Shown: one piece after another, positions 7,437 to 63,068 of the stretch
Layout: every line of letters starts with the position of its first letter
Position numbering within the stretch: position 1 is the stretch's first letter
From: a virus
Taxonomy: Duplodnaviria > Caudoviricetes
DNA: 63,068 nucleotides
IMG/VR virus record: IMGVR_UViG_3300025325_000021
Coordinates: 1-63,068 of that record
Reading direction: 5' to 3' (one strand)
Made by a program: the position numbers and the translations under genes
Notes under the pieces: model-generated
The model's database searches: none
Told to the model about the DNA's origin: nothing
Seen by the model: the letters and a program-made list of their open reading frames with translations, nothing else

Positions 7437-7467
7437 GTGGTTCGCGGCAACTGTCAGAAATTGCCTC

Positions 7468-7516
7468 TTGACATATTTTCTAAACTAGGCTATAATAAAT
7501 GCAGGACAAAAGATCA
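7468..7516 (+). promoter_or_regulatory. Early promoter family copy P1
   Basis: TTGACA(7468)-17-TATAAT(7491) followed by the conserved leader AGGACAAAAGATCA. Confidence 0.85.
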
Positions 7517-7532
7517 GAGAAAGGACAAAGAC

Positions 7533-18838: not shown

Positions 18839-18859
18839 GAACTGCTGTCAGATTGATAC

Positions 18860-18908
18860 TTGACATATTTTCTCAAATGGGATACAATATTACCAGGACA
18901 ACAGATCA
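18860..18908 (+). promoter_or_regulatory. Early promoter family copy P2
   Basis: TTGACA-17-TACAAT plus AGGACAACAGATCA. Confidence 0.85.
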
Positions 18909-18926
18909 GAGAAAGGACAGAGACCA

Positions 18927-19202: not shown

Positions 19203-19239
19203 GCCGGGAGAGGTTACCATCAAAAAAATTGCCCCTTGA
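19051..19239 (+). pseudogene. SymE/AbrB-fold small gene interrupted by an in-frame TAA at 19171
   Basis: MKTRKLKI...SLTLSGNWLRELGF*PGEYVIIETKPGEVTIKKIAP; the L.L.G.WL...GF..G..V.I....G.l.I pattern continues past the stop. Confidence 0.65.
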
Positions 19240-19284
19240 CAAATTTTCTCAAATGGGATACAATATTACCAGGACAACAGATCA
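19236..19284 (+). promoter_or_regulatory. Early promoter family copy P3
   Basis: TTGACA-17-TACAAT plus AGGACAACAGATCA. Confidence 0.85.
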
Positions 19285-19304
19285 AACGAGAGGAGACAAC
19301 GACA

Positions 19305-22041: not shown

Positions 22042-22055
22042 GTCAAGATTGCCCC

Positions 22056-22104
22056 TTGACATATTTTCTAATCTAGGCTATAATAAATTCAGGACAACAG
22101 ATCA
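22056..22104 (+). promoter_or_regulatory. Early promoter family copy P4
   Basis: TTGACA-17-TATAAT plus AGGACAACAGATCA and a GGAG RBS. Confidence 0.85.
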
Positions 22105-22120
22105 AACGAAGGAGACCTAA

Positions 22121-23333
22121 GTAAACTACGTCCCCGCTGAAGCGGGGAGCATTTGGACCTAACCCGAAAGGATTGATCCCAACGGTTGGTTTACAACAGC
22201 CCTGGCTGCAATATTTACAGCCGCATTGTGGTCCGCTGGCGCAGAGTAACCACAGGACACACAGGAGAAAGTAGATTGATTGGGTCGATTTGCTTTATCA
22301 ACACAACCACATACCGGACAAGTCTGGCTTGTGTATTTCGGATCAACGAAGATCACCGGAACACCCGCCAGCTCAGCCTTGTAAGCAATATAGCTCCGAA
22401 GCTGATAGAACGACCAGTTAGCGTGCTTGCTTCTCTGCTTGCGTCTAACAGGAGCCTCACGGATTCCGCTCAAATCTTCAAGAGCGATAGCCCGTTGAGT
22501 GTCTTGCGCTTTTTGAACAAGACGCTTGCTGATCGTGTGGTTGGTATTACTTTGAAACCTGGCCTGCTTGCCGGAGATTTTCTTGAGTTTATGTTTTGCC
22601 GATTTGGTTTGCTTCTTCTGAAGGTTCTTACGGCGATGCTCGAATTTGCGGCGGTTATCATCGACTACCTCGCCGGTGAACTGCTCACCGTCGCTATCAA
22701 CTGCCAGATTGACTATTCCAAGATCACAACCGAGAACGTCGTGAACGTCCTGCGGTTCTGGCGTCTCAACGTCACAGGTGGCAAGCAAGTAGAAATCGCC
22801 TTTGATAAGAGCGAGATCGCTTTCTCCACGCTGGCCCTGAAGCATCTCTTTTTGTCTTGCCCCGCAAACAAACGAGACGCGCTGGCGACCTTCGACCGTC
22901 CAGATCGAGACCTCATACAGGTCAACGTACCACTTAAGAATACGACTATCGAAAGCAATCGCTCCGGTCGATTTAAAAGTCCGTCTCACTTTTCGGTCGA
23001 TCTTATAGCTGTCAACAACCTTGGAGATGCAGCGGATAACAACCTGAGCGGTGAGGTTGAATTGTTCACGAACGTCGTAGTAAACCAATTTGTGCAGCGG
23101 TACACGGGAAAATCTTTTATGCTCCCATGCCTGTTCGGAAATATAGTTGCAAGCAGCATTAGCCGTCTCAAGCGTTTGTTTGAGAGCAGAGAATTGTTCA
23201 GGTGTTGGTTGAAGCTTGACCTTTGCGGTGAGTTTCATACCCGTATTATATCACAGTTCGTCAATCTGTTGAAAGTAAAGGAGGCCGCTTTCCTCTCCCC
23301 CATGAATGGGGGAGTGTCCAGCGGAATTTTTCT
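22121..23333 (-). mobile_element. IS200/IS605-family element, tnpB only (IS1341-like)
   Basis: Subterminal hairpins TCCCCGCT-GA-AGCGGGGA (right end, finishing TTAC on the minus strand) and CTCCCCCAT-GA-ATGGGGGAG (left end, starting AGAAAAA after TCAT). Removing it restores GGAG-acctaa-ATG. Confidence 0.85.
22159..23238 (-). CDS. tnpB: RNA-guided endonuclease TnpB
   Basis: RuvC-I 'LGCDLG', RuvC-II 'IALEDL', zinc finger 'SQTCPVCG..FSCVSCG', RuvC-III 'ADHNAAVNI'; D-E-D triad intact; TATAAT 6 nt before ATG suggests a leaderless mRNA. Confidence 0.95.
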   Translation of the reverse strand: MKLTAKVKLQPTPEQFSALKQTLETANAACNYISEQAWEHKRFSRVPLHKLVYYDVREQFNLTAQVVIRCISKVVDSYKIDRKVRRTFKSTGAIAFDSRILKWYVDLYEVSIWTVEGRQRVSFVCGARQKEMLQGQRGESDLALIKGDFYLLATCDVETPEPQDVHDVLGCDLGIVNLAVDSDGEQFTGEVVDDNRRKFEHRRKNLQKKQTKSAKHKLKKISGKQARFQSNTNHTISKRLVQKAQDTQRAIALEDLSGIREAPVRRKQRSKHANWSFYQLRSYIAYKAELAGVPVIFVDPKYTSQTCPVCGCVDKANRPNQSTFSCVSCGYSAPADHNAAVNIAARAVVNQPLGSILSG

Positions 23334-23588
23334 ATGACTACCACAATCGAGTACCACCAGGCAATGATCAAAACCACTCTGGTCAACGTAAGTCTGGAGC
23401 TTCCCGAATACGAGGGGCGCTCCTGGAGCGATGCGGAGATCAAAGAGGTCCTGGCGGGCGTAAAGCTGCCGGAGAATTTAGAACTCGGCCAGGCCCGCTT
23501 AGTTAATCTGGCTATCGGCTTCGTTACGATCAAAGACAACCAGGCGCATGTGCCCTGTGCACTGCGCTTCGAGGAAATCATCGGGTAA
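23334..23588 (+). CDS. Hypothetical early protein whose RBS is displaced by the IS
   Basis: ATG sits immediately at the IS boundary. Confidence 0.65.
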   Translation: MTTTIEYHQAMIKTTLVNVSLELPEYEGRSWSDAEIKEVLAGVKLPENLELGQARLVNLAIGFVTIKDNQAHVPCALRFEEIIG

Positions 23589-29175: not shown

Positions 29176-30005
29176 CTAGCGACAGAAATACTGCTGAGCG
29201 CATCCTCACCCCGCTTGAGGTCCGGAAATGGCTCGCCCATTATTTGAAGGAATGGGAGAAAGATGAACCAGAGATCAGCGAGGGACGCAGGAAAGCCATA
29301 GTCGGTGACCTCAACCGGGCGCTGTCTGCCCCGAACCGGGAGCCGAACCGGGAGCGGCGTCTTCTCCTGGGGTGGGTCTTCTGCCGTGCAGACAAAGCGC
29401 CTCAAGAATTCTCCTCGAAGCTGCTCTCGCTTGCGGAATGGTTCGCCCTCAACCGCTGGACAGGATCACGGAAAGTAGGTGACCGATGGTCTGTGCGCTC
29501 CACCTTCCCCGCTGAGGCGCGCTGGATCGCTAACTGTGCCCTGTATGACGCCGGGCGGGTCAAGGAAAACCCCGCCTTGACGATGGCGGAGATCGAACAG
29601 TTCTGGCAGGCGCACATGTACGACATCAACCAGGACGAGGATTTTTTTATAGCCGCGATGGAGATCGGGGGCATTCCTACTGCGGCAATCACAGTCACCG
29701 TTGCGCGCTGGGTACAGCTTGACCAGGCGGGGATGGCACCTCCGGTAGCCTACGGGGGACGCGAGATCATCGCTGTTGCCAGAGACAACACGTACCCCAA
29801 CGAACAGCCGATCCGCTATATTCTGTGGTTCGGAGACAACAAAGAACCCGAAGCCCTGGGCGTGCCGGGGAATACCGTCCTGGACACTGTCCGTCAGCCC
29901 GGGGAGCTAATCGACCTTGCCGAGATCGCAAACGAGGCACCAGAAATGCTACCGGCAGTACCTCTGCCGAGGGAGACGGAGAATGAACACGTTCCTGACT
30001 GGTAA
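29172..30005 (+). CDS. Hypothetical protein
   Basis: ATGA-coupled 277-aa ORF. Confidence 0.7.
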   Translation: MTSDRNTAERILTPLEVRKWLAHYLKEWEKDEPEISEGRRKAIVGDLNRALSAPNREPNRERRLLLGWVFCRADKAPQEFSSKLLSLAEWFALNRWTGSRKVGDRWSVRSTFPAEARWIANCALYDAGRVKENPALTMAEIEQFWQAHMYDINQDEDFFIAAMEIGGIPTAAITVTVARWVQLDQAGMAPPVAYGGREIIAVARDNTYPNEQPIRYILWFGDNKEPEALGVPGNTVLDTVRQPGELIDLAEIANEAPEMLPAVPLPRETENEHVPDW

Positions 30006-30684
30006 CAAGGTTGGCGTCGCTTTGCTGTTCGATGCCATCCCGGAGTCCGAGCAACAGGAGTTTCAGGCAATCGGCGACCGCTGGGAGTACGATTACTGGC
30101 GCATCGGCGACAAGGTCAACGAATGGAAAGAAAAAGTCCGTGATCAATATCTGCCAGTCACGGATGAGCATGTGTACCGATTCATGGCGTACCTATTGGG
30201 TGACCGGATCAGGGCGCGCACCGTGCGCTACTATGCTGACGTCGCCCGCTTCTATTCCGGGGTACGATTCCAGACTAGGGACGATTATGATGTACTGACA
30301 TTTACGCATTTTGCGATCGCATCCAGAGGAGAATCATGGCTGATACTGCTCGACGCCTGCGTGGAGTATATGCACTTCCACGGCGGCAGGCGACCGACCG
30401 TGGGATGGTTGGAAAAACTGCTCGGCCAGCCAACGTCTCAACCGGAGCCGCCAAATGAATGGCGTGACGGGGACATCCTGGCGCTAGCAAATTCCGATGA
30501 CGCTATGGCGTATGATGTCATGGGGACGGGGACGATCATCCCCGCCGTCCTTGCCTCGTTTCAAAGCGCCGTGCAGCGCCTAGTCGCTAACCTGCACCGA
30601 TTCCCGATCAGCGACGAAGCCAGGCAACGCATCCAGGCTGCATCCGAGACGCTACTGGATGAGCTGAGCAAAGCACTAAGCTGA
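29983..30684 (+). CDS. Hypothetical protein
   Basis: GGAG RBS before ATG at 29983. Confidence 0.7.
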   Translation: MNTFLTGNKVGVALLFDAIPESEQQEFQAIGDRWEYDYWRIGDKVNEWKEKVRDQYLPVTDEHVYRFMAYLLGDRIRARTVRYYADVARFYSGVRFQTRDDYDVLTFTHFAIASRGESWLILLDACVEYMHFHGGRRPTVGWLEKLLGQPTSQPEPPNEWRDGDILALANSDDAMAYDVMGTGTIIPAVLASFQSAVQRLVANLHRFPISDEARQRIQAASETLLDELSKALS

Positions 30685-30807
30685 ATTGTCAATTATTGCC
30701 ATGCGCGCCCCTCCGCGGGGTATAATCCTGGCGATGCTTCCCAGTGGAGCATTTTCGTGACAAGAACCGACGCGCCTCCCTCGCGCCGGTTCTTATCATA
30801 TTGCCTC

Positions 30808-30858
30808 TTGACAATTTTTCTCAAATGGGCTATAATAAACGCATAGGACAACAGATCA
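30808..30858 (+). promoter_or_regulatory. Early promoter family copy P5
   Basis: TTGACA-17-TATAAT plus AGGACAACAGATCA. Confidence 0.85.
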
Positions 30859-30874
30859 CAAGCGGAGAAAATCA

Positions 30875-33058
30875 ATGATTGACAAAGACACAATCTCGAA
30901 AGCCCTTCAATACCTGGCCCGGATTTGCGATTATGCTGAGTCGCAGGACGGGCAGGGTTTCAACAAGTTTGATGCTGCGTTCGGCCACAGCCTGGCTGAA
31001 TATACCGCCACCGGTGGAACGCTCACCGACCGGCAGGCGACGGCGGCTCTGAGGATGCTCCTGAAATACCGGGGGCAGTTGGAGCAGGTCGGGATCAAGC
31101 TCACCACCGCCCCGGACGAACAGCCCGTGGAGCGAGTAGACCCTGGGGTAGAGCCTATCACCCCTGAGCGTTCCGCCCCTAAAAGCCCCACTACATCAAA
31201 CGCCACTGTCTGGACGGAAAACGGCAGGGCGTACGTAAAGTTTCCCGGCAAGCCGGATGAGGCGGTGCGGTCAGCGATAAAATCCATCCCCGGATGGAAA
31301 TGGCATCCTGAGCGCAATGACAAAGCCTGGTCAGTCCCGGAAGCCTCCGCCGTTGCACTGGCAGAGGTAGCCGCGGGAAAAGCGCCGGACAGCTCTCCCC
31401 AATATCAGCCACAGCCAGGAACGAAACTCCCCGCGGTGATCCTGAGCAGGGAGAACGGCACCATACTGGTACAGTTCCCGGACCCCGATGGACGGAGCGA
31501 GCGGGTCGCCAAAGTCAAGGCGCTCCCCGAGCGCAAATGGAACCCAGACAAGCCCGGTTTACCCTGGTCGGTTCCCAACCGCTACACCCTGGACTTAATC
31601 GCCATGTTCCCCGAGGCGACGGTCGATGAGGGCGTTCGGGAACTTGCCGAGCAGCAACGGGAGCTACGGGCGATGAGCAATAAAGCGCAGGGATCGAGCC
31701 TGACGGAGATCGACGGCTTGGGTGGAGTTCCTTACCCCTTCCAGTACGTCGGGGTGGAGTTCCTTGACCGGGCGAACGGACGAGCTTTAATCGCTGACCA
31801 GATGGGGCTGGGCAAGACCATCCAGGCATTGGCATGGCTGCAATTGCATCCCGAGCTGCGCCCTGCGGTGATCGTAGTCCCGGCCTCGCTCAAACTGAAC
31901 TGGCAACGGGAGATCATCCGCTGGATGAGCAAGCGGGACAAAGTCGCTATACTTGAGGGGCGCAAGACGTTCGACCCGGCGCTCACCGGCGCAGACATTT
32001 TCATCATCAATTATGACGTGTTATCACCCTGGGTCGATACTCTGGTAAAAATGAGACCCGCAGTGATGATCGCAGACGAAGCCCATTATGCCAAGAATTA
32101 TAAAGCGCAGCGCACAAAGGCGCTGGCAAAATTCGCAAAAGCGGTCGAGCGAGTGATCCTTCTCACCGGGACACCGGTCACCAACCGGCCCATTGAACTG
32201 TTCCCCCTGTTGAACATGATCGACCCTGAGGGCTGGCCCTCGTTCTTCCGCTACGCGAAGGAGTATTGCGGCGGCTACAATGACGACTACGGTTTCAACG
32301 TGGGCGGGGCGACCAACCTGGAAGACCTGCACCAGAGAATAAAGCCCTACGTAATCCGGCGCACGAAAGACCAAGTCCTGAAAGAGCTTCCACCTAAACA
32401 GCGGAACACCCTGGTAGTTCGGTTCGACGAGGCGCACCGCAAAGAATACAATGAAATGATCTATGAGGCGGCAATGGCCGCAGCCCGGACGAGCGCTGAG
32501 GCGTTGGTGTTCATCGAGAAAGCCAAGCAGGTGACCATGCGAGCCAAGATGGCGGACACCCTGGAGTGGATCAAAAACTTCTTGGAGGGCGGCGACAAAC
32601 TGGTAGTCTTCGCAGTACACCACGAGACGGTTGACGCTATTATGCGAGAATTCCCCGGCAGCGCAGTCAGACTCACTGGACGGGAGAATCTCCAGGAGCG
32701 GCAGGAAGCGGTTGACGCCTTCCAGAACGACCCGAGAATCCAGCTCTTCGTCGGCAACATCAAAGCCGCCGGGGTAGGAATCACGCTCACTGCTGCCAGC
32801 GATGTAGCATTTGTCGAGTTTGTATGGACGCCCGGAGATCACGACCAGGCCGAGGACCGGACGCACCGCATTGGTCAGACAGGCAGTGTCACAGCATGGT
32901 ACATCGTAGCTGAGGGCACCATCGAGGAAACAATCGTCAGATTGATCGAGAGCAAACGGCAGGTGATTGACACCATCCACGACGGCAAAGTCGGGGAGCT
33001 GGAGTTCTCGGTCGCCGGGGAGCTAATCAAGGAAATTGCAAGCGAGGCCAAACGATGA
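30875..33058 (+). CDS. SNF2-family ATPase (SMARCAL1/HARP-like annealing helicase)
   Basis: 'ADQMGLGKT', 'DEAH', 'LTGTPVTNRP', 'GVGITLTAA', 'QAEDRTHRIGQ'; two N-terminal 'KW.P....WSVP' HARP-like repeats. Confidence 0.9.
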   Translation: MIDKDTISKALQYLARICDYAESQDGQGFNKFDAAFGHSLAEYTATGGTLTDRQATAALRMLLKYRGQLEQVGIKLTTAPDEQPVERVDPGVEPITPERSAPKSPTTSNATVWTENGRAYVKFPGKPDEAVRSAIKSIPGWKWHPERNDKAWSVPEASAVALAEVAAGKAPDSSPQYQPQPGTKLPAVILSRENGTILVQFPDPDGRSERVAKVKALPERKWNPDKPGLPWSVPNRYTLDLIAMFPEATVDEGVRELAEQQRELRAMSNKAQGSSLTEIDGLGGVPYPFQYVGVEFLDRANGRALIADQMGLGKTIQALAWLQLHPELRPAVIVVPASLKLNWQREIIRWMSKRDKVAILEGRKTFDPALTGADIFIINYDVLSPWVDTLVKMRPAVMIADEAHYAKNYKAQRTKALAKFAKAVERVILLTGTPVTNRPIELFPLLNMIDPEGWPSFFRYAKEYCGGYNDDYGFNVGGATNLEDLHQRIKPYVIRRTKDQVLKELPPKQRNTLVVRFDEAHRKEYNEMIYEAAMAAARTSAEALVFIEKAKQVTMRAKMADTLEWIKNFLEGGDKLVVFAVHHETVDAIMREFPGSAVRLTGRENLQERQEAVDAFQNDPRIQLFVGNIKAAGVGITLTAASDVAFVEFVWTPGDHDQAEDRTHRIGQTGSVTAWYIVAEGTIEETIVRLIESKRQVIDTIHDGKVGELEFSVAGELIKEIASEAKR

Positions 33059-33366
33059 AAATCCCCTGCCTTAGCTTGACGCTCGGACAACAAGGCGGGA
33101 TCGGTAATCCGCCAGTAATCGTCCGTCTCCGGGGACGCTGGTACGCAGTGATCGATAGCCGCGATACCCGGCCACCTGCTGAGCTTGCCGAAAGGCTGGA
33201 TTATCAGCAACGGCGAAAGTCACCCTATGACCACAGTCCAGACCCTTACTGGCACCCGCAGGGGTGGGTATGGCGCAAGTGGAATAACGCTCAAGAAATC
33301 ACCTGGGCGGAGCTAGAAAGGATGGTTGACAAACATGGAAGTAAGATTGATCAAAAAAGTCGATGA
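33055..33366 (+). CDS. Hypothetical protein
   Basis: ATGA coupling. Confidence 0.55.
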   Translation: MKIPCLSLTLGQQGGIGNPPVIVRLRGRWYAVIDSRDTRPPAELAERLDYQQRRKSPYDHSPDPYWHPQGWVWRKWNNAQEITWAELERMVDKHGSKIDQKSR

Positions 33367-33541
33367 GGTCACCGGGGAAGTAACCTGGTTCGCCCAGCAT
33401 AGAGAGAAGGCCGGGCGCTGGTCTGCTGGCGTCCCGGCCAGCCCCTTCACCATCGCAGTATGGGAGGAACTGGAGCGGGTCGAAAAACTCCTGGCAGGAG
33501 TCGAGCAGGTCCTAAAAAAGAAACTCGGAGACAGACCGTGA
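33335..33541 (+). CDS. Hypothetical protein
   Basis: Coupled ORF. Confidence 0.5.
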   Translation: MEVRLIKKVDEVTGEVTWFAQHREKAGRWSAGVPASPFTIAVWEELERVEKLLAGVEQVLKKKLGDRP

Positions 33542-33741
33542 ACAAAGCTGGTTGCCCGATCTGCACTACCGATAAAGTCGCCCTTGCTGATCTGCGCCAC
33601 CACGAGCGGATCGAAAGTTGCGAGGTACACGGGAATTGGTTCGTCACCGTCTGCGATCGATGCGGACGTGCAGTTGTGAGCGACTGCGTCAATTCCTGCC
33701 GAGATTGCTATCCAGCAGGCAGTGACTACTCCACCCCGTGA
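33538..33741 (+). CDS. Small Cys-rich zinc-binding protein; C-terminus altered by the mini-IS
   Basis: GTGA coupling; CPIC, CEVH, CDRC, CRDC. Confidence 0.55.
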   Translation: MNKAGCPICTTDKVALADLRHHERIESCEVHGNWFVTVCDRCGRAVVSDCVNSCRDCYPAGSDYSTP

Positions 33742-33920
33742 ACGGGGTGGCTTCTAGGGATTGCGCCCAAGCTCTGTAGTCCCAGAGCTAAAATGTTTAT
33801 TGCGGCGTTTTCGTCTCGGTCGATTACGAGACCACAAATAACAATATTATAACACAGATTTGCGTAATATTCGCTATTCATCTCCCCCCTTTAAGGGGGG
33901 AGCCTTCTAGCATTTTTTCT
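33722..33920 (-). mobile_element. Non-autonomous IS200/IS605 derivative (199 bp): left end, -10 box, tnpB 3' remnant/omegaRNA, right end
   Basis: Hairpins CCACCCCGT-GA-ACGGGGTGG and CTCCCCCCTT-TAAGGGGGGAG. Minus strand encodes CGLVIDRDENAAINIL (TnpB RuvC-III). Boundaries are TTAC|AGAAAA and TCAC|. Confidence 0.85.
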
Positions 33921-33924
33921 GTAA

Positions 33925-34188
33925 ATGACTACTTCGGAGACCATGAGTAACCCTGCACGCTACAATGTCCGTGTACGGGTGAGGGTCAATATCCCCACAG
34001 TAAACGGGAGGATAATCCGGCGCATCACAATTCGCAAGACCCTGCGCTGCGCCTTCGCAGACCTGTTCGGGGAGGTCAGGGACTGGATGTCCGCCAGGCA
34101 TCCAAAATACACCTGCTGGTACGTGCGTTCTGTCTGGCAGCACCACGGAACGTACACCAGACGCGTGTATCTTGCCCGGGGGTTCTAA
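33925..34188 (+). CDS. Hypothetical basic protein
   Basis: ORF after the mini-IS; GGAG RBS before an internal ATG. Confidence 0.5.
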   Translation: MTTSETMSNPARYNVRVRVRVNIPTVNGRIIRRITIRKTLRCAFADLFGEVRDWMSARHPKYTCWYVRSVWQHHGTYTRRVYLARGF

Positions 34189-34197
34189 GATTGACTA

Positions 34198-34252
34198 TTG
34201 ACAAATTTTCTAATCCAGGCTATAATAAATGCGTAAGACACAGATCAGATCA
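34198..34252 (+). promoter_or_regulatory. Early promoter family copy P6
   Basis: TTGACA-17-TATAAT plus AGACACAGATCAGATCA. Confidence 0.85.
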
Positions 34253-34268
34253 AACGAGAGGCACAGAC

Positions 34269-34805
34269 ATGGCACAAGCACAGTTCACAAAGTCGGAAAT
34301 TTTCTCCTGGTTCAACCGAGCCAGGAGCGCCGCCCGCAAGGGCAACGGCGGGCTGGAAATCAAGCGCACCAACCGGGCGCTTGGCTACCTGCTCTCAGGG
34401 AAGGCGCAGGAGCACTGGGGGAAGTACGGGACGACGCTGCGCTCCTGTGGATGCCCCGACCGGGAGCATAATCGCAATATCCCCTGCAAGGGGATGGTCG
34501 CAAAAATGATCGCCAGCCGGATCGAAAGCCACCGGCCACAGCCCGAGACGATGACCGTCCGGGCGTTGATGCGGAGTTACGATCCGGTCAGCGTCTTAAA
34601 TTCACAGAACCCGCAAGAAATATTCGAACGATTGATCTGCGGCGTCGAAACCCCCAACGGCCCAATGAACGCCAACTGGCCAGCAACAGAATGGCTGGTC
34701 GATACAGTCTCCAGCGGTTGGACAGCGACCGGGGCGACGTTGCTCTCGAAGCAAGGCAGCCGGGCAGGGTTCGCCGGGTACTTCGAGATCACACTCGAGA
34801 GGTAA
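34269..34805 (+). CDS. SWIM-like zinc finger protein
   Basis: 'SCGCPD......PCKG'; GAGG RBS after P6. Confidence 0.65.
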   Translation: MAQAQFTKSEIFSWFNRARSAARKGNGGLEIKRTNRALGYLLSGKAQEHWGKYGTTLRSCGCPDREHNRNIPCKGMVAKMIASRIESHRPQPETMTVRALMRSYDPVSVLNSQNPQEIFERLICGVETPNGPMNANWPATEWLVDTVSSGWTATGATLLSKQGSRAGFAGYFEITLER

Positions 34806-34821
34806 TCATGAAAGGACATCG

Positions 34822-35256
34822 ATGAAAATCACGCGTGAATACCTCGTTGGCCTTGGCGCAAGCTGCAAACAATTGGACACATTCTCGGGCGAATGGCCGG
34901 ATGGCGCTGAGGTTACATTGGATAACTGCCTGAGGGCAGCAGAGTTGGGACTTGACCTGGATTGGCTGGCGGAGAAAATGTTTCCCGCTCGGGCGTTGGA
35001 AGCCTACCTACAGGCCACAGCCCCGGCGTTGGAAGCCTACGAGCAGGCAAAAGCCCAGGCATTGGAAGCCTACCGACAGGCAAGAGCCACGGCGTTGGAA
35101 GCCTACCGACAGGCCACAGCCCCGGCGTGGGAAGCCTTCGAGAAGGCAAGAGCCACGGCGTTGGAAGCCTACGAGCAGGCCACAGCCCCGGCGTTGGAAG
35201 CCTACCGACAGGCAAGAGCCACGGCATTTTATAAAATTTATGATGAGATCTACTAA
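34822..35256 (+). CDS. Protein with 11-aa helical tandem repeats
   Basis: AAGGA RBS; seven ALEAYxQAxAx units. Confidence 0.75.
   Translation: MKITREYLVGLGASCKQLDTFSGEWPDGAEVTLDNCLRAAELGLDLDWLAEKMFPARALEAYLQATAPALEAYEQAKAQALEAYRQARATALEAYRQATAPAWEAFEKARATALEAYEQATAPALEAYRQARATAFYKIYDEIY
34992..35224 (+). repeat. 33-bp coding tandem repeat, about 7 units
   Basis: ggcgttggaagcctac...caggc units. Confidence 0.9.
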
Positions 35257-35259
35257 CAA

Positions 35260-35303
35260 ATTGGCGGCAGGTTGACACTCGCCGTGAGACCCGCCGCCAA
35301 AAA
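35260..35303 (+). terminator. Hairpin, possible terminator
   Basis: TTGGCGGC...GCCGCCAAAAA. Confidence 0.35.
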
Positions 35304-35434
35304 GGAGATGATGCAATGCAGAGTATACCACAACTGACCTGGGACTACATCCGATTTATCATCGCCATTCCGCTGCTCACCGGGCTTTGCCTGCTGGCGG
35401 ATTGGATTTACTGGCAGGCGAAGGGAGGCAAGCC

Positions 35435-35665
35435 ATGACCCTGACAATCACAAACACCTGGGACTATGGATTATGGCCGCTTGAGCGAGCGCACCTGCGT
35501 TTCGAGATCGACCAGACGGGACGCAGGGTGTTGATCGACTTCAACGGGGCAGAGCGAATCGTAGAAACCAGGCCGGTCAAAAAGCCGCGCGGCGGCAATA
35601 CTCGGAGACTCGGAAAGTATGATTGGGAATGGTTGAACGGACGATGGGTGCGAAAGTTCCTCTAA
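35435..35665 (+). CDS. Hypothetical protein
   Basis: GGGAGG RBS. Confidence 0.6.
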   Translation: MTLTITNTWDYGLWPLERAHLRFEIDQTGRRVLIDFNGAERIVETRPVKKPRGGNTRRLGKYDWEWLNGRWVRKFL

Positions 35666-42898: not shown

Positions 42899-43357
42899 AT
42901 GCTCAAAAACGCGCCTTCTGGACAAGCTCTGGACAGGGTGGAAAGGATTTATATGGTTTCCCTGGATAGTTACGGGTTGGGTGAGATTTTAGAGGCAATG
43001 GGGCTTCCGCCTACGATGCGCTCATTCGAGGTAATCGCTGTCGATCTGAGCATGCTTGCAGGGAAACGTCCGCCCTGGACCAAGAAGTACGTGCATAGCG
43101 TTTACCGGGGAGTCATCAATCCGAGCCAGGTTTTTCTCGCCGCGGTGTCGGCACTTGCCCAGGTAGTGGACGGCGTACCTCCGGGTGTTGCCGGGACAAG
43201 TCAGGTCACGGTCTTTGCAGATGTTACCGCCATTCCTGAGGGCGTCTTGATCCCGCGCGGGGCAAAGGTTATCAAGTGCGCCCGGCCAGGTTGCCCGGTG
43301 TGGTTCATCAGGATTCACCCACGGCAAAAATATCACGACCGGAGTTGTAGGCTATGA
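42899..43357 (+). CDS. Hypothetical protein with a C-terminal zinc-finger-like motif
   Basis: 'CARPGCPVWF..HPRQKYHDRSC'. Confidence 0.6.
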   Translation: MLKNAPSGQALDRVERIYMVSLDSYGLGEILEAMGLPPTMRSFEVIAVDLSMLAGKRPPWTKKYVHSVYRGVINPSQVFLAAVSALAQVVDGVPPGVAGTSQVTVFADVTAIPEGVLIPRGAKVIKCARPGCPVWFIRIHPRQKYHDRSCRL

Positions 43358-43824
43358 TCTTCATCGTTGAAGGGTATGTAGTGCCGTACGTGCGCATGAC
43401 GCATCGGAGCAAGTTCGCCAGTGACCGGGCGAAGCGTTATCTCAATTCCAAAGAGGCCACCGGATGGCAGATTAAAATGCAAATGATTCAAAATGGATGG
43501 TCGATGATCCCGAAGGGCACTCCCCTGGAAGTAAGTGTAGCTTTCCACGGATACGATCACACGTCTGACCTGTCCAACCTATACAAAGCGGTCGAGGACG
43601 CAATGAACGGCATAGTGTACTCAGATGACCGCTGGGTGGATAAGCAGTCAGCAGACCGCTATGCTCAACCTGAGAATCAGCGGGCGATAATCAAGGTCGG
43701 GGTCCTGCACGAATTTTCAACCGATCAATATGTGACAACTCTCCCCGCTAAAGCGGGGGAGCATCCCCGGAAACGCTCGCCCCAACGGGCCACGTTACCT
43801 CCGGGAGCCTGCGTCCCAGGCTGA
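43354..43824 (+). CDS. rusA: RusA-family Holliday junction resolvase; 3' end reads into the mini-IS
   Basis: 'SDLSNLYKAVEDAMNGIVYSDDRWV'. Confidence 0.85.
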   Translation: MIFIVEGYVVPYVRMTHRSKFASDRAKRYLNSKEATGWQIKMQMIQNGWSMIPKGTPLEVSVAFHGYDHTSDLSNLYKAVEDAMNGIVYSDDRWVDKQSADRYAQPENQRAIIKVGVLHEFSTDQYVTTLPAKAGEHPRKRSPQRATLPPGACVPG

Positions 43825-43908
43825 GAATAAACTAATTTTATCACAGAAAGGAGGAGTGCGCAATTCCCCATCCCCCCTGAAGGGGGGAGTACCCTTGCGC
43901 AATTTTCT
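43732..43908 (-). mobile_element. Non-autonomous IS200/IS605 derivative (177 bp)
   Basis: Hairpins CTCCCCGCT-AA-AGCGGGGGAG and TCCCCCCT-GA-AGGGGGGA. Boundaries are CCAT|AGAAAA and TCAC|. Contains a TG-n-TAAAAT -10 box. Confidence 0.8.
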
Positions 43909-44124
43909 ATGGCGATGACATCGGCAACTTTGCCGCACGACTTCATTCCCTCCGACGATGGGCGACTGCGCATCTGCAAGGTTTGCGGGTATGCCGTGTT
44001 CTGGACTGACGGCGTGCTGACCGTCCTGGCAGAGGGCGAGCCGGAGAAGCACGACGACCCGTTCGGCAGTCTGCCGCCCGAATTTGTGAGCTGGGCGGAG
44101 AGGTACTTCGATGGGCGGGAGTGA
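43909..44124 (+). CDS. Small CxxC protein, in frame with rusA if the mini-IS is removed
   Basis: ATG at the IS boundary; 'ICKVCG'. Confidence 0.55.
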   Translation: MAMTSATLPHDFIPSDDGRLRICKVCGYAVFWTDGVLTVLAEGEPEKHDDPFGSLPPEFVSWAERYFDGRE

Positions 44125-58835: not shown

Positions 58836-60805
58836 CGGGTTCTCACATTCGTATCGTCATCCCTGGATACGCTGCTGTCAAAGGAACGCTCCGCGCCGGC
58901 TTTTGCCTGCGAACCGGAAGGACGCGCGCCTGCATGCACCAGCCATAGAATATCTGCCGGGGTCTGAAAAGTTTGCCATCCATCGTACATGTAAACCACA
59001 TCGTACACCTCGTTGATGATCGGGAATTCAGGCAGGGGTTGAAAGTCCTCAACCGCTGCGTCTGCCGATAGCGGCCCGATCTGCCAGCCGTCAAATGTAT
59101 GCCCCGCAAAAGCATCGAACGAATCGTCGGTCGGGGGCAGTTCAGGGAGATGGTAAGGTTCGACGACATCGCCGGGGAGCAACCAGGTCTGCCAGCCCTG
59201 GAAATCATGCAGCCACGTCCCGTCGTAGCTCTGGTCAACCTGCGGCAGTTCAGGAAGCGCCTGAAAGTCCTGGACGTCCGCCGAAATTTGCCATGTCTGC
59301 CAACCGGCAAAATCATATTGCCACGTCCCGTCGTAGCTTTCATCGACCTGCGTCAGTTCAGGAAGATGATATGGCTCAGCGATGTCACCCGGTATCTGCC
59401 ATGCCTGCCAGCCGGAGTAGTCTGCTTCCTGCTCCGGCTGGAATTCGGGCAGGCTGGAGACGGGCGGCTGAACTGCTACATCGGCGGGCGTCTGCCACGT
59501 TTGCCAGCCGTCAAACGTATGTCCCTGGGCGGCGTCGAACGTCCCGTCAACTTCGGGCAGTTCAGCGAGCGACTGAAAGTCCTGGACTTCGGCGTCTGCG
59601 GAGAGCGGCCCGGCCTGGACGCCCTGGAAGTCATGCCCCTGGCTCTCGTCAAATACCTCGTCAGTTGGCGGCAGTTCGGGGAGAGCCTGGAAGTCCTCCA
59701 CCATCTGAGCGGGCTGCTGCCAGCCGGTGAAGTCATGTTCCGCCGTTTCGTCATAGACCTCGTCGATGATCGGCGTCTCAGGGAGATGGTAAGGTTCAAC
59801 GATGTCTGCCGGTGTTTGCCACGCTGCCCAACCTGCGAAGTCATGGGCGTGGTCAATATCGTATCCCTGGTCGATTGCGGGCGCTTCGGGCTGTGGGAGT
59901 TGAGGTTCCGCCGCGGCCTCCTCGAACTGCCGCTCCTGCCAACCGCCGTAGCTCTCCAGGTCAAAGGGGAGATCATAGCTCTCGTCAACCTGGGGAAACT
60001 CACGGGGAGCCTGGAAGTCTACCGAAGCCGGGACCTGAAGCCAGGCCCATGACACGGATACTGCCGTCCCCTCCACGGGGGATGACTGCTGGCCCTCGTA
60101 ATATTGTGGATGGTAAGGTTCAAATGCCCCGTCAATCTCGGGCAGCTCTGGCGCGGGCTGCTCGGTCGGAGGCAGAACGTCAGCGGCGAGCGGTGCTGCC
60201 TGGTACCCCCGGAAATCATGGCCCAGCGCGGCGTCGAAGTGCTCGTCGATCTCCGGCAGCGTCCTGCCCCGCGCCATCGGACTAGGCACGTCAGCGGTAA
60301 TTGCCGGGATGCTCGTGTAGCTGTTCAGGACAGTGCTCGGCGAGAGGATCACCCGCAGGTTGACCGTCTGCCCATTGCTGACCTGCGAACTGTCGATCTG
60401 TAGCGTGATCTCGATCTCGGTGTTGCCGTTTGCGGGGACGGTGATGCTCCCAGATGTTGGCAGCGTGTTATCGAGATCGTCGCCTACGCCAGCCTGGAAC
60501 GTGCCGGTGCCGTCGAGGAGCTTGCTGGTAGCGTCATCGTCCGCGAAGTTGCCGCTGCCCACTACCTTGACCGCGCTGCCCGTGGTGACATCCAGGTAGC
60601 CGCCTCCGGCTACCTGGTACTGCACCTTGAACGTCTGGGCGGCAGCCTTATTGTTCGATTCCTGGACGACGAAACGCACCCGAAAATTGACGTCGGCGAG
60701 CTGCGTCCAGTTGGCGTTGAGGGCATGGGTGAACGTCGCGCTGTTCAGTGCGACATCGTCATTCCGGCCGCGAAACGACTTCTGGTCGTAGATCGGACTG
60801 GTCAC
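58832..60805 (-). CDS. Repeat-containing putative virion protein B
   Basis: Beta-rich N-terminal domain (~175 aa), then about 12 acidic ~36-aa repeats. Confidence 0.8.
   Translation of the reverse strand: MTSPIYDQKSFRGRNDDVALNSATFTHALNANWTQLADVNFRVRFVVQESNNKAAAQTFKVQYQVAGGGYLDVTTGSAVKVVGSGNFADDDATSKLLDGTGTFQAGVGDDLDNTLPTSGSITVPANGNTEIEITLQIDSSQVSNGQTVNLRVILSPSTVLNSYTSIPAITADVPSPMARGRTLPEIDEHFDAALGHDFRGYQAAPLAADVLPPTEQPAPELPEIDGAFEPYHPQYYEGQQSSPVEGTAVSVSWAWLQVPASVDFQAPREFPQVDESYDLPFDLESYGGWQERQFEEAAAEPQLPQPEAPAIDQGYDIDHAHDFAGWAAWQTPADIVEPYHLPETPIIDEVYDETAEHDFTGWQQPAQMVEDFQALPELPPTDEVFDESQGHDFQGVQAGPLSADAEVQDFQSLAELPEVDGTFDAAQGHTFDGWQTWQTPADVAVQPPVSSLPEFQPEQEADYSGWQAWQIPGDIAEPYHLPELTQVDESYDGTWQYDFAGWQTWQISADVQDFQALPELPQVDQSYDGTWLHDFQGWQTWLLPGDVVEPYHLPELPPTDDSFDAFAGHTFDGWQIGPLSADAAVEDFQPLPEFPIINEVYDVVYMYDGWQTFQTPADILWLVHAGARPSGSQAKAGAERSFDSSVSRDDDTNVRTR
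58950..60265 (-). repeat. About 12 degenerate ~108-bp coding repeats
   Basis: Consensus about (V)QDFQxLPELPxVDESYDxxxGHDFxGWQxWQxPxD. Confidence 0.85.
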
Positions 60806-61140
60806 TGCCGTTCTCCGGGCCTGTATGCCGAGCGCGGCGGAAAATCGGGATCTGCCTCTGCTAGATTGTTAATGTGCCGGTACTGCTCGTTGGGGATGGT
60901 GCGCCCAAATTTTACGGTCCGCGCGCCGGGTCGGATCAGGTAATCGAATAGCCCAAAAATATCCACGCCGCGCCAGGTTTCGCCATCCCAGACGTAGTAG
61001 TCAGAGCCAGACTGGTTGTAACGCCCGGTCTGAGGATCAACCTGGACGATTACCTGCACGTCCAGAGCGGGGGCGTCAAACGGCGAACCGTCCCGGTCGG
61101 AGTAGCACGATCCGTCGCCGTACCAGATGCGCCACCTCAC
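60802..61140 (-). CDS. Hypothetical protein
   Basis: Coupled on both sides; 'WRIWYGDGS', 'DYYVWDGETWRGVDIFGLFDYL'. Confidence 0.7.
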   Translation of the reverse strand: MRWRIWYGDGSCYSDRDGSPFDAPALDVQVIVQVDPQTGRYNQSGSDYYVWDGETWRGVDIFGLFDYLIRPGARTVKFGRTIPNEQYRHINNLAEADPDFPPRSAYRPGERQ

Positions 61141-63068
61141 GATACGCTCTCCACTGTAAAGCGCAGACGCAGGTTACGCCAGTCATTGACCGCAGCCTTC
61201 TCTGCCGCCGAGAGCATCAGCACGTAGGTGGTGTCCACGTCGCTAAGCGCCTGCGATTGCTGAGCGATCACCGTGCCGTCCTCGCGCAACTCTGCTCGAA
61301 CTGTGACCGTCTGCGTCCCGCTCCGCCGCCTGCCTCGCCAGATCAACCCCTCGACCAGGTCAGGGCCGGGTGTGCCGGGCGGGTCGGTCAGAGCAGTTTC
61401 GAAGTACTCGCCTCCGGCTACGTTCTCATGCCAGACGTAATCGGCGTCCGATGGCTGGTTAGGCTCGTCGAGGGACAGGTACAGGTCAACCGCTGATCCA
61501 TTCTCACGCTTCCAATTCCCGGACTGACCCACGTCGCCGGAGGGCAGCAGGGCATCCGTGGGGTGCTGCTTGAAGTCGTAGCCGTAGAACCTGCCGTAGT
61601 CCGGGTCATACAGCTCGTCGATCTGCGGCAACTCTGGCTGAGCATAGGCCTCCGTGACCACCTCGAAGGGCGTCTGCCAGGTCTGCCAACCGCTAAACTC
61701 GCTCCCGTGGTCAGCGTCATATCCCTGGTCGATGGATGGAAATTCCGGCTGCGTAAGCGGCTCGGCAACCTCGAAGGGGATATTCCATGCCTGCCAGCCG
61801 GTGAAGTCATGCCCAAAGTCAGGATTGTAGCTTTGATCGACCTGAGGGATTTCGGGGAGCGGCTGAAAGTCCTGCACGTCACCCGGCGTCTGCCATGCGC
61901 TCCATCCGGTAAAGTCGTGACCGGTTGTCTCGTCGTAGCTTTCATCGACGGGAGTCGTCTCCGGTAGGGGTTGCGGTTCGACCACATCTCCGGGGAGTGG
62001 AGCGGATTGCAAGCCAGCAAAGTCGTGATCCAGGGAAGCATCAAAACTGAAGTCGACTGCGGGCAGCTCTGCCAGCGGCTGGAAGTCCTGTACGTCGCCA
62101 GAAAGCGGTTGCTGTTGCCATCCGGCGAAGTCATGGCCCTGGGAGGCATCGTAGCTGTCCTCGATTGGAGTGATTTCGGGAAGAGGCTGTATCTCAACCA
62201 GATCGCCTGCAAGTGGCGCAGATTGCCAGCCGACAAAGTTATGTCCCTGAGCTTCGTCGAATGTCTCGTCAACCTGGGGGAGTTCTGAGAGTGGTTGTTG
62301 AGCAGGTGCGGCTGATGGCACATAGTCCACCAGCGCCAAGAGCGTCGAAACCCATACCTGGTCAGCGTCGTCAACCGCGATGCGCACCCCGATCTGCATT
62401 GCATCCAGATCCGCCTGCGTCCAGGCTGTGGTAGACGCCCCCGGCAGGTCGTACAGGATGAGCTTGAGGTTAGAGGGTAATGTCCCGTCCGCGTTGGAGA
62501 ACCAGGCGGTTGAGTTGAGGACGTGTTGGGCCGATTCCTCGACCGTTCCTCCCGCGCTAGCCTTGATGCGGGTGACGAAACGCGGATCGGTACCTGTGGC
62601 GGATGACAGGGTATGCCGCGCAAACACGCCGACAACGTTGACAGTACCCACATCGGCGGGCGAGGCCGCGCAGTTGTAGTCATCTACATGGTCTAACGTG
62701 CCACTGGACACATAATCCCCGACATCATTGGGGACAATCTCATCGGTCTGAGACCAGTTAGCTCCGCTGTCCGTCCCGCCGCGGGCGAACTGGGCGCTAT
62801 CTCCCGTCGCGTTGGGGCGTATCGCCACCACGCTGCCTGCGCCAGGGTAGCTGTTCTGGATCGAGCCGATGCTGCTGTTGATCGCCAGGTCATCGAAATA
62901 CCACTCGCCCTGCGTCTGCGCCTCGGATTGCAGGTTGCCGCCGACGATGATCGAGTTAGCCCCAGTGGATAACGATCTGGTACTCGATCCGGCGAACTCC
63001 GACCCATTCAGGCGAGCGCGCACGATGCACGCCCCCGCTCCGCCCACGGTGGACATCTCGAGCTCGAT
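61137..63068 (-). CDS. 3' part of repeat-containing putative virion protein A (about 780 aa in total with 1..441)
   Basis: Frame is open to the window end; beta-rich domains flank about 7 acidic 36-aa repeats. Confidence 0.85.
   Translation of the reverse strand: MELEMSTVGGAGACIVRARLNGSEFAGSSTRSLSTGANSIIVGGNLQSEAQTQGEWYFDDLAINSSIGSIQNSYPGAGSVVAIRPNATGDSAQFARGGTDSGANWSQTDEIVPNDVGDYVSSGTLDHVDDYNCAASPADVGTVNVVGVFARHTLSSATGTDPRFVTRIKASAGGTVEESAQHVLNSTAWFSNADGTLPSNLKLILYDLPGASTTAWTQADLDAMQIGVRIAVDDADQVWVSTLLALVDYVPSAAPAQQPLSELPQVDETFDEAQGHNFVGWQSAPLAGDLVEIQPLPEITPIEDSYDASQGHDFAGWQQQPLSGDVQDFQPLAELPAVDFSFDASLDHDFAGLQSAPLPGDVVEPQPLPETTPVDESYDETTGHDFTGWSAWQTPGDVQDFQPLPEIPQVDQSYNPDFGHDFTGWQAWNIPFEVAEPLTQPEFPSIDQGYDADHGSEFSGWQTWQTPFEVVTEAYAQPELPQIDELYDPDYGRFYGYDFKQHPTDALLPSGDVGQSGNWKRENGSAVDLYLSLDEPNQPSDADYVWHENVAGGEYFETALTDPPGTPGPDLVEGLIWRGRRRSGTQTVTVRAELREDGTVIAQQSQALSDVDTTYVLMLSAAEKAAVNDWRNLRLRFTVESVS
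61555..62300 (-). repeat. About 7 degenerate 108-bp coding repeats, same family as 58950..60265
   Basis: For example VVEPQPLPETTPVDESYDETTGHDFTGWSAWQTPGD. Confidence 0.85.
63033..63068. repeat. Terminal overlap, copy 2
   Basis: Matches 1..36 with 3 substitutions. Confidence 0.9.

Follow-up and report, generated by a model that had tools for sequence, protein, structure and literature searches.

A protein-less IS605/IS1341-family mini-element in an uncultured soil phage keeps a candidate TnpB guide-RNA core behind its own predicted promoter

In Geobacillus stearothermophilus, palindrome-associated transposable elements (PATEs) "often encode omegaRNAs", which are used in trans by the TnpB of other copies, according to the accessible sections of Meers et al. 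2023 (PMC10055086), and the accessible text of Zedaveinyte et al. (bioRxiv 2023.11.20.567912) describes a PATE with insertion sequence (IS) ends of the IStron type. Here we describe an element of this kind, mini-element 1, in an uncultured soil phage. The window, by which we mean the whole analyzed stretch of DNA, is the IMG/VR virus record IMGVR_UViG_3300025325_000021 (63,068 bp; linear by its classification, with about 75% completeness), and all coordinates are given on that record. Mini-element 1 is almost certainly a PATE-like, protein-less derivative of an IS605/IS1341-family element that arose by internal deletion, and its predicted structure indicates that an intact guide-RNA core is kept under the element's own promoter. 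Like the PATEs in the accessible part of Meers et al. (PMC10055086), it has both ends, carries no gene and would be mobilized by TnpA in trans; unlike them, it is phage-borne, is present as a single copy, belongs to an unrelated Chloroflexota/methanogen family, is joined at a former start codon and is known from sequence alone. The element type is already described, and mini-element 1 is a well-documented example rather than the discovery of a kind.

A virus-borne PATE has likewise been described in the archaeal tailed halovirus HRTV-DL1 (PMC10544981), where it is 489 bp long and 99% identical to a host copy, is transcribed antisense to an annotated viral open reading frame (ORF), and has a 3′ part that is the most expressed region in infection; within the available portion of that report, its authors do not tie it to a TnpB guide RNA. 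Unlike it (PMC10544981, accessible text), mini-element 1 is 199 nt long, has no known identical host copy and has been seen as DNA only. The best comparison for the RNA is ISDra2, for which the accessible part of Nakagawa et al. 2023 (PMC10097598) gives a scaffold of 116 nt and describes RNA 5′ of -116 as dispensable. A literature search, with supplements outside its reach, found no phage-borne, guide-only PATE using a host TnpB. Particular to the present case are the absence of the cognate nuclease family from a phage contig that carries another tnpB, the presence of two independent cassettes in one phage, the junction at the start codon, and a core that is missing from Rfam and contains a predicted loop-to-tail pseudoknot.

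Mini-element 1 reads on the minus strand, in the order given by an earlier sequence-only reading: left-end hairpin, TATAAT, a jump after 6 nt to about 37 codons of tnpB, right-end hairpin, and TCAC (Table 1). The 5′ tip between TTAC and the left-end hairpin is AGAAAAAATGCTAGAAGG, and the hairpin is followed by ATGAATAGCG..., ahead of the promoter box. ATTGTT (6 nt) and A33839 separate TATAAT from the tnpB homology, which begins at 33838, and the retained 117 nt read in frame as ICGLVIDRDENAAINILALGLQSLGAIPRSHPVHGVE before the stop codon. The right-end tail AGTAGTCAC combines TCAC, the right-end cleavage motif, with UAGUC, the 3′ strand of a predicted pseudoknot described below. Both ends have subterminal imperfect palindromes that are not inverted repeats of each other, and each hairpin pattern has one match in the window at up to 3 mismatches, against 0 of 100 shuffles. 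IS608 of Helicobacter pylori targets TTAC, inserts 3′ of this motif without duplication and has a TCAx right-end motif, and its subterminal hairpins are set back from the left and right ends by about 19 and about 10 nt, respectively, all as in mini-element 1. The two are of different families in sequence, and the tnpA and tnpB genes of IS608 are both absent from mini-element 1. The only protein coding in mini-element 1 is a remnant ORF of 51 amino acids (aa), whose ATG lies upstream of the -10 box. Its GC content is lower than that of the window (46.7% versus 56.2%), which fits import from outside.

The boundaries were supported by scripted deletion, as had been claimed. Removal of 33722-33920 in silico yields an 89-aa ORF ending in ...CYPAGSK, whose TGA overlaps the ATG of ORF 33925-34188; with the element present, the interrupted ORF ends in ...AGSDYSTP, the final K being replaced by DYSTP. 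The insertion point thus lies at the final codons of a small phage gene that is zinc-ribbon-like, 3′ of TTAC and without target duplication, and scarless removal restores the site. In a mechanical count of plus-strand ORFs with 60 aa or more, 26 of 174 have ATGA at their end, and the restored overlap is thus in the usual style of this phage. In two other soil contigs, similarity extends over 33722-33800 and 33722-33784, respectively, and breaks off precisely at 33722. A soil contig (run X13 record 4) that matches 33790-33838 runs into tnpB coding sequence beyond 33838, which places the break at 33838/33839 and implies a deletion from the start codon up to roughly codon 339 of 376. A 6-kb metagenome contig (L087) is 99.9% identical over 6,073 nt to window positions 29391-35460 and has the element at the same site; judged by this identity, it is the same phage and not a second insertion. 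With both ends, a promoter box and supported boundaries, the earlier view of a bounded mini-element rather than random debris is upheld.

The cognate TnpB family, whose search among candidate host genomes had been proposed, was found in metagenome-assembled genomes (MAGs) of Anaerolineae/Chloroflexota. The retained tail matches Pfam Cas12f1-like_TNB at E 0.0005, below the curated cut-off, and a search of the 51-aa remnant against longer proteins gave 165 of 286 candidates at E ≤ 0.01. The best protein relatives are 375-376 aa long, contain three TnpB Pfam domains and are 84-89% identical over exactly the last 37 residues. Scanning the genome_contigs collection with six full-length TnpBs gave 77 loci, the closest being three copies (L002-L004; 79-81% to the family protein P0001) in one uncultured Anaerolineaceae MAG, followed by loci in Anaerolineae, Chloroflexia, and Caldilineales MAGs and then in Methanosarcina, Methanothrix, and other methanogens. 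By blastn, the element is 83% identical over 121 nt to L003 (E 7e-32) and 82% to L002; its tail and right end together are 82-84% identical to these two loci, DNA alignment with relatives is limited to element positions 83-199, and the left end agrees in layout only. L002-L004 hold tnpB alone, and L005, L006, L008, and L046 have a gene directly upstream of tnpB, identified in L008 as a transposase by Pfam Y1_Tnp (E 3.5e-33), making this a family of the IS605/IS1341 type. For this uncultured soil phage, the relatives point to Anaerolineae/Chloroflexota as a host lead. Its SNF2 helicase allowed no host call, as cultured phages offer no close relative of it (33-36% identity at best).

The evidence for a guide-RNA core comes from an alignment of 44 family tails of 200 nt with mini-element 1 (45 sequences), in which pairs were counted on 167 columns. 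RNAalifold called 17 pairs, 13 of them with compensatory changes and all inside the part kept by mini-element 1, and it found no helix in the 105 upstream alignment columns that mini-element 1 lacks. Overall, 80.6-84.9% of cells are paired, versus 37-54% with slid partners, and the covariation score was reached by none of 500 shuffles. This covariation check, which the sequence-only reading had suggested, supports the hairpins Ha, Hb, and Hc. The outer pairs of Hc are conserved with compensatory changes, and its inner pairs are blurred by alignment offsets. A column scan of all stacks also pointed to a candidate 5-bp pseudoknot between the Ha loop and the right-end tail, paired in 98.6% of cells versus 19-55% for slid partners; six cells are changed on both sides versus 0.9 in shuffles, a modest covariation for a pairing that was picked post hoc. 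The Leu codon in the Ha loop is nearly always CUA or UUA, and changes in its last base are matched by changes in the partner; the loop encodes a conserved Gly-Leu, a competing reason for the conservation of the pseudoknot.

In mini-element 1 itself, Ha (6 bp), the pseudoknot (5/5 Watson-Crick) and Hc (8 bp) are all perfect, and the single-sequence RNA fold contains Ha and Hc (-43.5 kcal/mol, z -3.65). The core supported by covariation is the last 68 nt, comprising the three hairpins and the predicted pseudoknot, all intact in mini-element 1. The claim that the deletion kept exactly what is needed for a guide RNA stands only in part: the retained 117 nt contain every covariation-supported helix, but the supported core is the last 68 nt only. 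The word "exactly" had to be given up, as the synonymous-codon entropy of the first 16 retained codons equals that of the 28 codons upstream (for example, Leu 2.39, Arg 2.37, and Ala 1.6-1.8 bits) and a second mini-element of the phage, mini-element 2, keeps just 5 nt before Ha. The retained segment is placed as a TnpB guide RNA would be: it runs across the 3′ end of tnpB into the transposon right end, and the adjoining flank would be the guide; we infer the guide role of 33702-33721 from the build of such RNAs. Hc would then serve twice, as the TnpA recognition hairpin at the DNA level and as the predicted guide-proximal stem at the RNA level.

Three further candidate pairings were dropped: a 5′ hairpin GUCUCG/CGAGAC from the single-sequence fold, just 70% paired across the family; an enclosing "stem 2", AUUUUA/UAGAAG, 72% paired; and a 3-bp long-range GAY:GUC pairing from RNAalifold, which competes with the better-supported 5-bp pseudoknot. 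Rfam 15 gave no match at the gathering score over the window and only chance-level matches for 33650-33980 at E ≤ 10. The family analysis thus defines a compact guide-RNA core, outside Rfam, that is common to Chloroflexota and methanogen TnpB elements.

As a separate observation, the alignment of loci L002-L070 gives one tail architecture for TnpB elements of Chloroflexota, Methanosarcina, Methanothrix, and Methanococcoides, in the order Ha with a GGGNYUA loop, Hb, UAGAAG/UAGAUG, right-end hairpin, and AGUAGUCAC, which by its sequence would imply transfer of one IS family between bacteria and archaea. Two full-length loci of Chloroflexia MAGs (L009 and L039) have an extra insert of about 50 nt in the loop of the right-end hairpin, with a hairpin of its own and a ...GGGGGTCAC motif, and this insert looks like a nested small element.

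Compared by layout, and as far as the accessible text of Nakagawa et al. (PMC10097598) describes ISDra2, the ISDra2 guide RNA and the predicted one here both overlap the tnpB 3′ end and the right end, with a scaffold of 116 nt in ISDra2 and 117 nt kept here. The loop of the guide-proximal hairpin is of the UUUA type in ISDra2, near -20, and UUCA here, at -21 to -18; just 5′ of the guide lies a pseudoknot strand, at -5 to -3 in ISDra2 and, by prediction, at -7 to -3 here. The partner strand differs, being at -105 to -103 in ISDra2 and in a hairpin loop at -60 to -56 here. Unlike ISDra2 (PMC10097598), the family shows no supported counterpart of stem 1 or of the triple helix, and the target motif is TTAC instead of TTGAT.

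The left end provides the evidence for the promoter. L002, L003, L004, and the complete tnpB element at 22 kb of the phage share one order, namely target motif, AGAAAA..GCGC, hairpin, -10 box, 6 nt, and tnpB ATG, and an alignment of left ends (L002-L004, L091, L104, the 22-kb element, and mini-element 2) has one layout in all. The target motifs at these ends are TTAT in L002/L003/L004, TCAT in the 22-kb element, and TTAC in L104. This alignment supports the TGnTATAAT box of mini-element 1 as the element's own native promoter. The spacing of a -10 box, 6 nt, and ATG suits a leaderless mRNA, given general -10-to-start distances. In mini-element 1, the -10 box is followed by ATTGTT, A, and then TTTGTGGTCTC, which corresponds in the alignment to codons of the second zinc-finger CxxC, (V/I)CGL, and the transcript is predicted to start at A33839, 7 nt downstream of the -10 box. 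In mini-element 1, in mini-element 2, and in the type represented by L091, the former start codon marks the 5′ junction. Joining of the promoter at the former start codon in several independent mini-elements is a hint that the transcript start matters.

Table 1. Features of the window and classes of matches to the family covariance model R1 in Anaerolineae-class genomes
Feature	Position	Strand	Remarks
Mini-element 1, 199 nt	33722-33920	minus	left end 33920, right end 33722
TTAC target motif	33921-33924	minus	adjoins left end; transposon-adjacent motif; direct reading
Left-end subterminal hairpin, CTCCCCCC-TTAAA-GGGGGGAG	33882-33902	minus	nested in outer GCTA...TAGC palindrome
TGT+TATAAT, extended -10-type box	33846-33854 (TATAAT 33851-33846)	minus	aligned with the -10 box of relatives
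TnpB remnant, last 37 codons and stop	33726-33839	minus	homology break at 33838/33839
Hairpin Ha, GCUCUG-GGACUA-CAGAGC	33771-33788	minus	6/6 pairs changed on both sides; 96% of cells paired
Predicted pseudoknot 5′ strand GACUA, in Ha loop	33777-33781	minus	pairs with UAGUC 33724-33728 (-7 to -3)
Hairpin Hb, GGG-CGCAAU-CCC	33757-33768	minus	3/3 pairs compensatory in family; 96% of cells paired
Right-end hairpin Hc, DNA form CCACCCCG-TTCA-CGGGGTGG, RNA form CCACCCCG-UUCA-CGGGGUGG	33731-33750	minus	arms covary across family
Right-end tail AGTAGTCAC	33722-33730	minus	last base 33722; nearly invariant among 45 family tails
Would-be guide TGCCTGCTGGATAGCAATCT	33702-33721	minus	phage flank, antisense to 3′ end of ORF 33460-33741; by position only
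Mini-element 2, 177 nt	43732-43908	minus	CCAT flank, left-end hairpin, GTGATAAAAT, TAGTTTAT, tail to ...GTCAC
Complete tnpB-only element, 359-aa TnpB (ORF 22159-23238)	22121-23333	minus	direct reading
R1 matches on long tnpB frames, n = 8			L089, L090, L094, L096, L098, L099, L101, L103
R1 matches partial or cut by contig end, n = 3			L095, L097, L100
R1 match degenerate, n = 1			L092
R1 matches keeping only a 24-51-aa tail, n = 7			L091, L106, L104, L093, L102, L105, L107

Comparable builds occur elsewhere, beginning with the same phage. The R1 covariance model matches the window at 43732-43867 (26.4 bits, E 8e-5), inside mini-element 2, where a GTGATAAAAT box precedes the tail, which starts just ahead of Ha. 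Its removal fuses ORF 43354-43731, which is RusA-like (Pfam RusA, E 5e-9), in frame to ORF 43909-44124, with 197 aa to the first stop, so mini-element 2 either interrupts a gene or lies exactly on the border of one. Scanning 151 genomes of the class of the Anaerolineaceae MAG with R1 gave 19 matches in 7 genomes, which were sorted by tblastn and reading (Table 1). A left end and a promoter-like box lie directly upstream of four of the seven tail-only matches (L091, L106, L104, and L093, of three types), and the other three tails have no recognizable left end within 260 nt. At two different sites, L091 and L106 carry the same 100 nt of left end and promoter; in L106, the model match stops after only 110 nt, where the sequence diverges from the right end of the family. 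In another copy of that genome, whose left end is 78% similar, the same layout of -10 box, 6 nt, and ATG leads directly into tnpA. A census of left ends in one genome, with 4 and 3 places, comprised three mini-elements, one tnpA-bearing copy, two cut by contig ends, and one weak partial, and is too small to decide. A pattern search of 401 Anaerolineae-class genomes gave one match, with an allowed gap of 18-30 that excludes the closest relatives (gap 17). In addition, a soil contig (X14 record 9) resembles 33722-33800 and continues into a TTGCAA-17 nt-TATAAA-like sequence, of which 30 letters are visible, and it may be another promoter-tail fusion. All these comparison elements were found by a model or match that requires the tail, so copies with the right-end hairpin only are invisible, and the recurrence is suggestive rather than a measurement.

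We propose that mini-element 1 reached the phage in a Chloroflexota host, already as a mini-element or in full length with the deletion following later, and that it would have entered by TnpA-driven single-strand "peel-and-paste" transposition; its present mobility would depend solely on TnpA supplied in trans. Transcription from about A33839 would yield a scaffold of about 117 nt continued by flanking sequence (guide TGCCTGCTGG...). This RNA could be loaded by a host TnpB of the same family, which could then cut phage genomes with an empty TTAC site, and recombination with an occupied copy after cutting would retain or spread the element. Pfam Y1_Tnp has no match in the contig, and its sole tnpB is of another family (the contig being about 75% complete); the RNA could therefore be used only with a host TnpB, and the element moved only with a host TnpA. 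We regard the production of the guide RNA and its use in trans as close to an even call, perhaps slightly short of it, and the explanation as a whole, from mini-element identity through trans use, could equally prove right or wrong. If the RNA is made and used, the phage would bias its own inheritance through a host nuclease and a 200-nt cassette, and the "cut the empty site" model of TnpB would extend from chromosomes to phage populations.

The most serious alternative is an inert relic, in which the gene was lost by deletion, the remnant is tolerated at a gene end, and the RNA is neither made nor used; we consider this somewhat improbable and still a real possibility. Much of what weighs against use in trans also favors a relic, beginning with the single known copy. 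Second copies were sought by three pattern scans of viral_contigs (right end, left end, and junction), which gave no match, by blastn against cultured phages, also with no match, in five Chloroflexota genomes, which yielded only full-length tails, and in a metagenome scan, which yielded only the same phage (L087) and a full-length element. In these collections, a single copy is thus known, with no sign of multiplication or mobility as a mini-element. No natural empty-site allele was found through relatives of the two flanking small ORFs, which have none in viral_contigs, and contigs of 4 of 16 runs showed no joint skipping mini-element 1, though contigs cannot show rare variants. The 16 soil/sediment runs of 2016 that contain the region are DNA runs, none of them on record as RNA. 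The contig has neither the cognate TnpA nor the cognate TnpB, as described above.

Further points weigh against use in trans, of which the divergence pattern and the lack of constraint in the 5′ part also favor a relic. The tail of mini-element 1 differs from that of L003 at 20 of 114 nt, with 12 codons changed only synonymously and 7 non-synonymously, so most changes arose while the tail was still protein-coding and the deletion is recent by comparison. The intactness of the structure is thus only a weak sign of selection acting on the RNA. No RNA-level constraint is visible in the first 49 retained nt, and Hb of mini-element 1 has 3 bp versus 4 bp and a GAAA loop in close relatives. Support for the pseudoknot is mostly conserved complementarity, and its 3′ strand is also part of the right end at the DNA level. 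A simple sigma-70 scan did not call the promoter of mini-element 1, because it has no -35 box. The recurrence of the build carries an ascertainment bias, since comparison mini-elements lacking Ha and Hb are undetectable.

Against a relic speak the integrity of both ends, the promoter box, and every supported helix, and the recurrence of the promoter-to-tail build in mini-element 2 and, among Anaerolineae-class genomes, in three or more types. One such type has the same left end and promoter at two sites, one copy having a divergent right end, and the 5′ junction is at the former start codon in three independent cases.

A stronger version of use in trans seems unlikely to us, namely that the two guide-only cassettes, at 33.8 and 43.8 kb and accompanied by an unrelated complete tnpB element, borrow host TnpB during mixed infections to cut insert-free sibling or rival phages and so act as a homing or exclusion drive. 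If true, this would be an RNA-guided drive in a phage population that costs about 200 nt and needs no nuclease gene.

It is very improbable that the phage's own TnpB uses the mini-element 1 RNA as a second guide. The complete tnpB element that encodes it lies 11 kb away in the same orientation and has a similar left-end layout (TCAT followed by AGAAAAATT.., a hairpin, TATAAT, 6 nt, and ATG), but its protein is just 30% identical to P0001 and thus of a different family, in keeping with the sequence-only reading that the remnant differs from this gene. The 3′ end of the 22-kb element scores 11.7 bits (E 0.35) with R1, versus 113.5 bits for mini-element 1, which is in the training set of the model. 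The tails that follow the right-end hairpins differ as well (CGTAGTTTAC versus AGTAGTCAC), and so, by reading, does the predicted pseudoknot strand. An equally slight chance belongs to the idea that the main effect is regulation of phage genes by an outward antisense promoter into ORF 33460-33741, since the layout is fully explained by transposon parts and insertion near start codons fits motif plus tolerance, even if the element is antisense to plus-strand genes, abolishes the ATGA coupling to the next gene, alters the protein end, and has a terminator-like plus-strand site in its left end (33894-33908).

The three IS605-type insertions of the window (33921-33927, 23334-23337, and 43909-43912) are all on the minus strand, and the target motif of each touches or overlaps a plus-strand start codon (GTAA-ATG, ATGA, and ATGG, respectively). 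This placement may reflect a motif that holds the complement of ATG together with tolerance between genes.

The 22-kb element sits exactly between a copy of a promoter and ribosome-binding site module (22048-22120) and the ATG of ORF 23334-23588, so its insertion separates this ORF from promoter and ribosome-binding site by 1.2 kb. The 73-nt module (repeat family D3) has six copies (7460-7532, 18852-18924, 19228-19300, 22048-22120, 30800-30872, and 34190-34262), combines a consensus TTGACA-17-TATAAT promoter with a shared 5′ leader, and probably represents one class of promoters of the phage. The two record ends (1-36 and 63033-63068) share a 36-nt direct repeat, 92% identical, which may stem from overlap in the assembly of a circular or permuted genome, though the record is classed as linear. 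Other repeats are 33-nt tandem repeats at 34954-35261, inside ORF 34822-35256, which encode Ala/Glu/Tyr-rich 11-aa repeats, and repeat families with a 108-nt period at 59009-62291 (59-62 kb).

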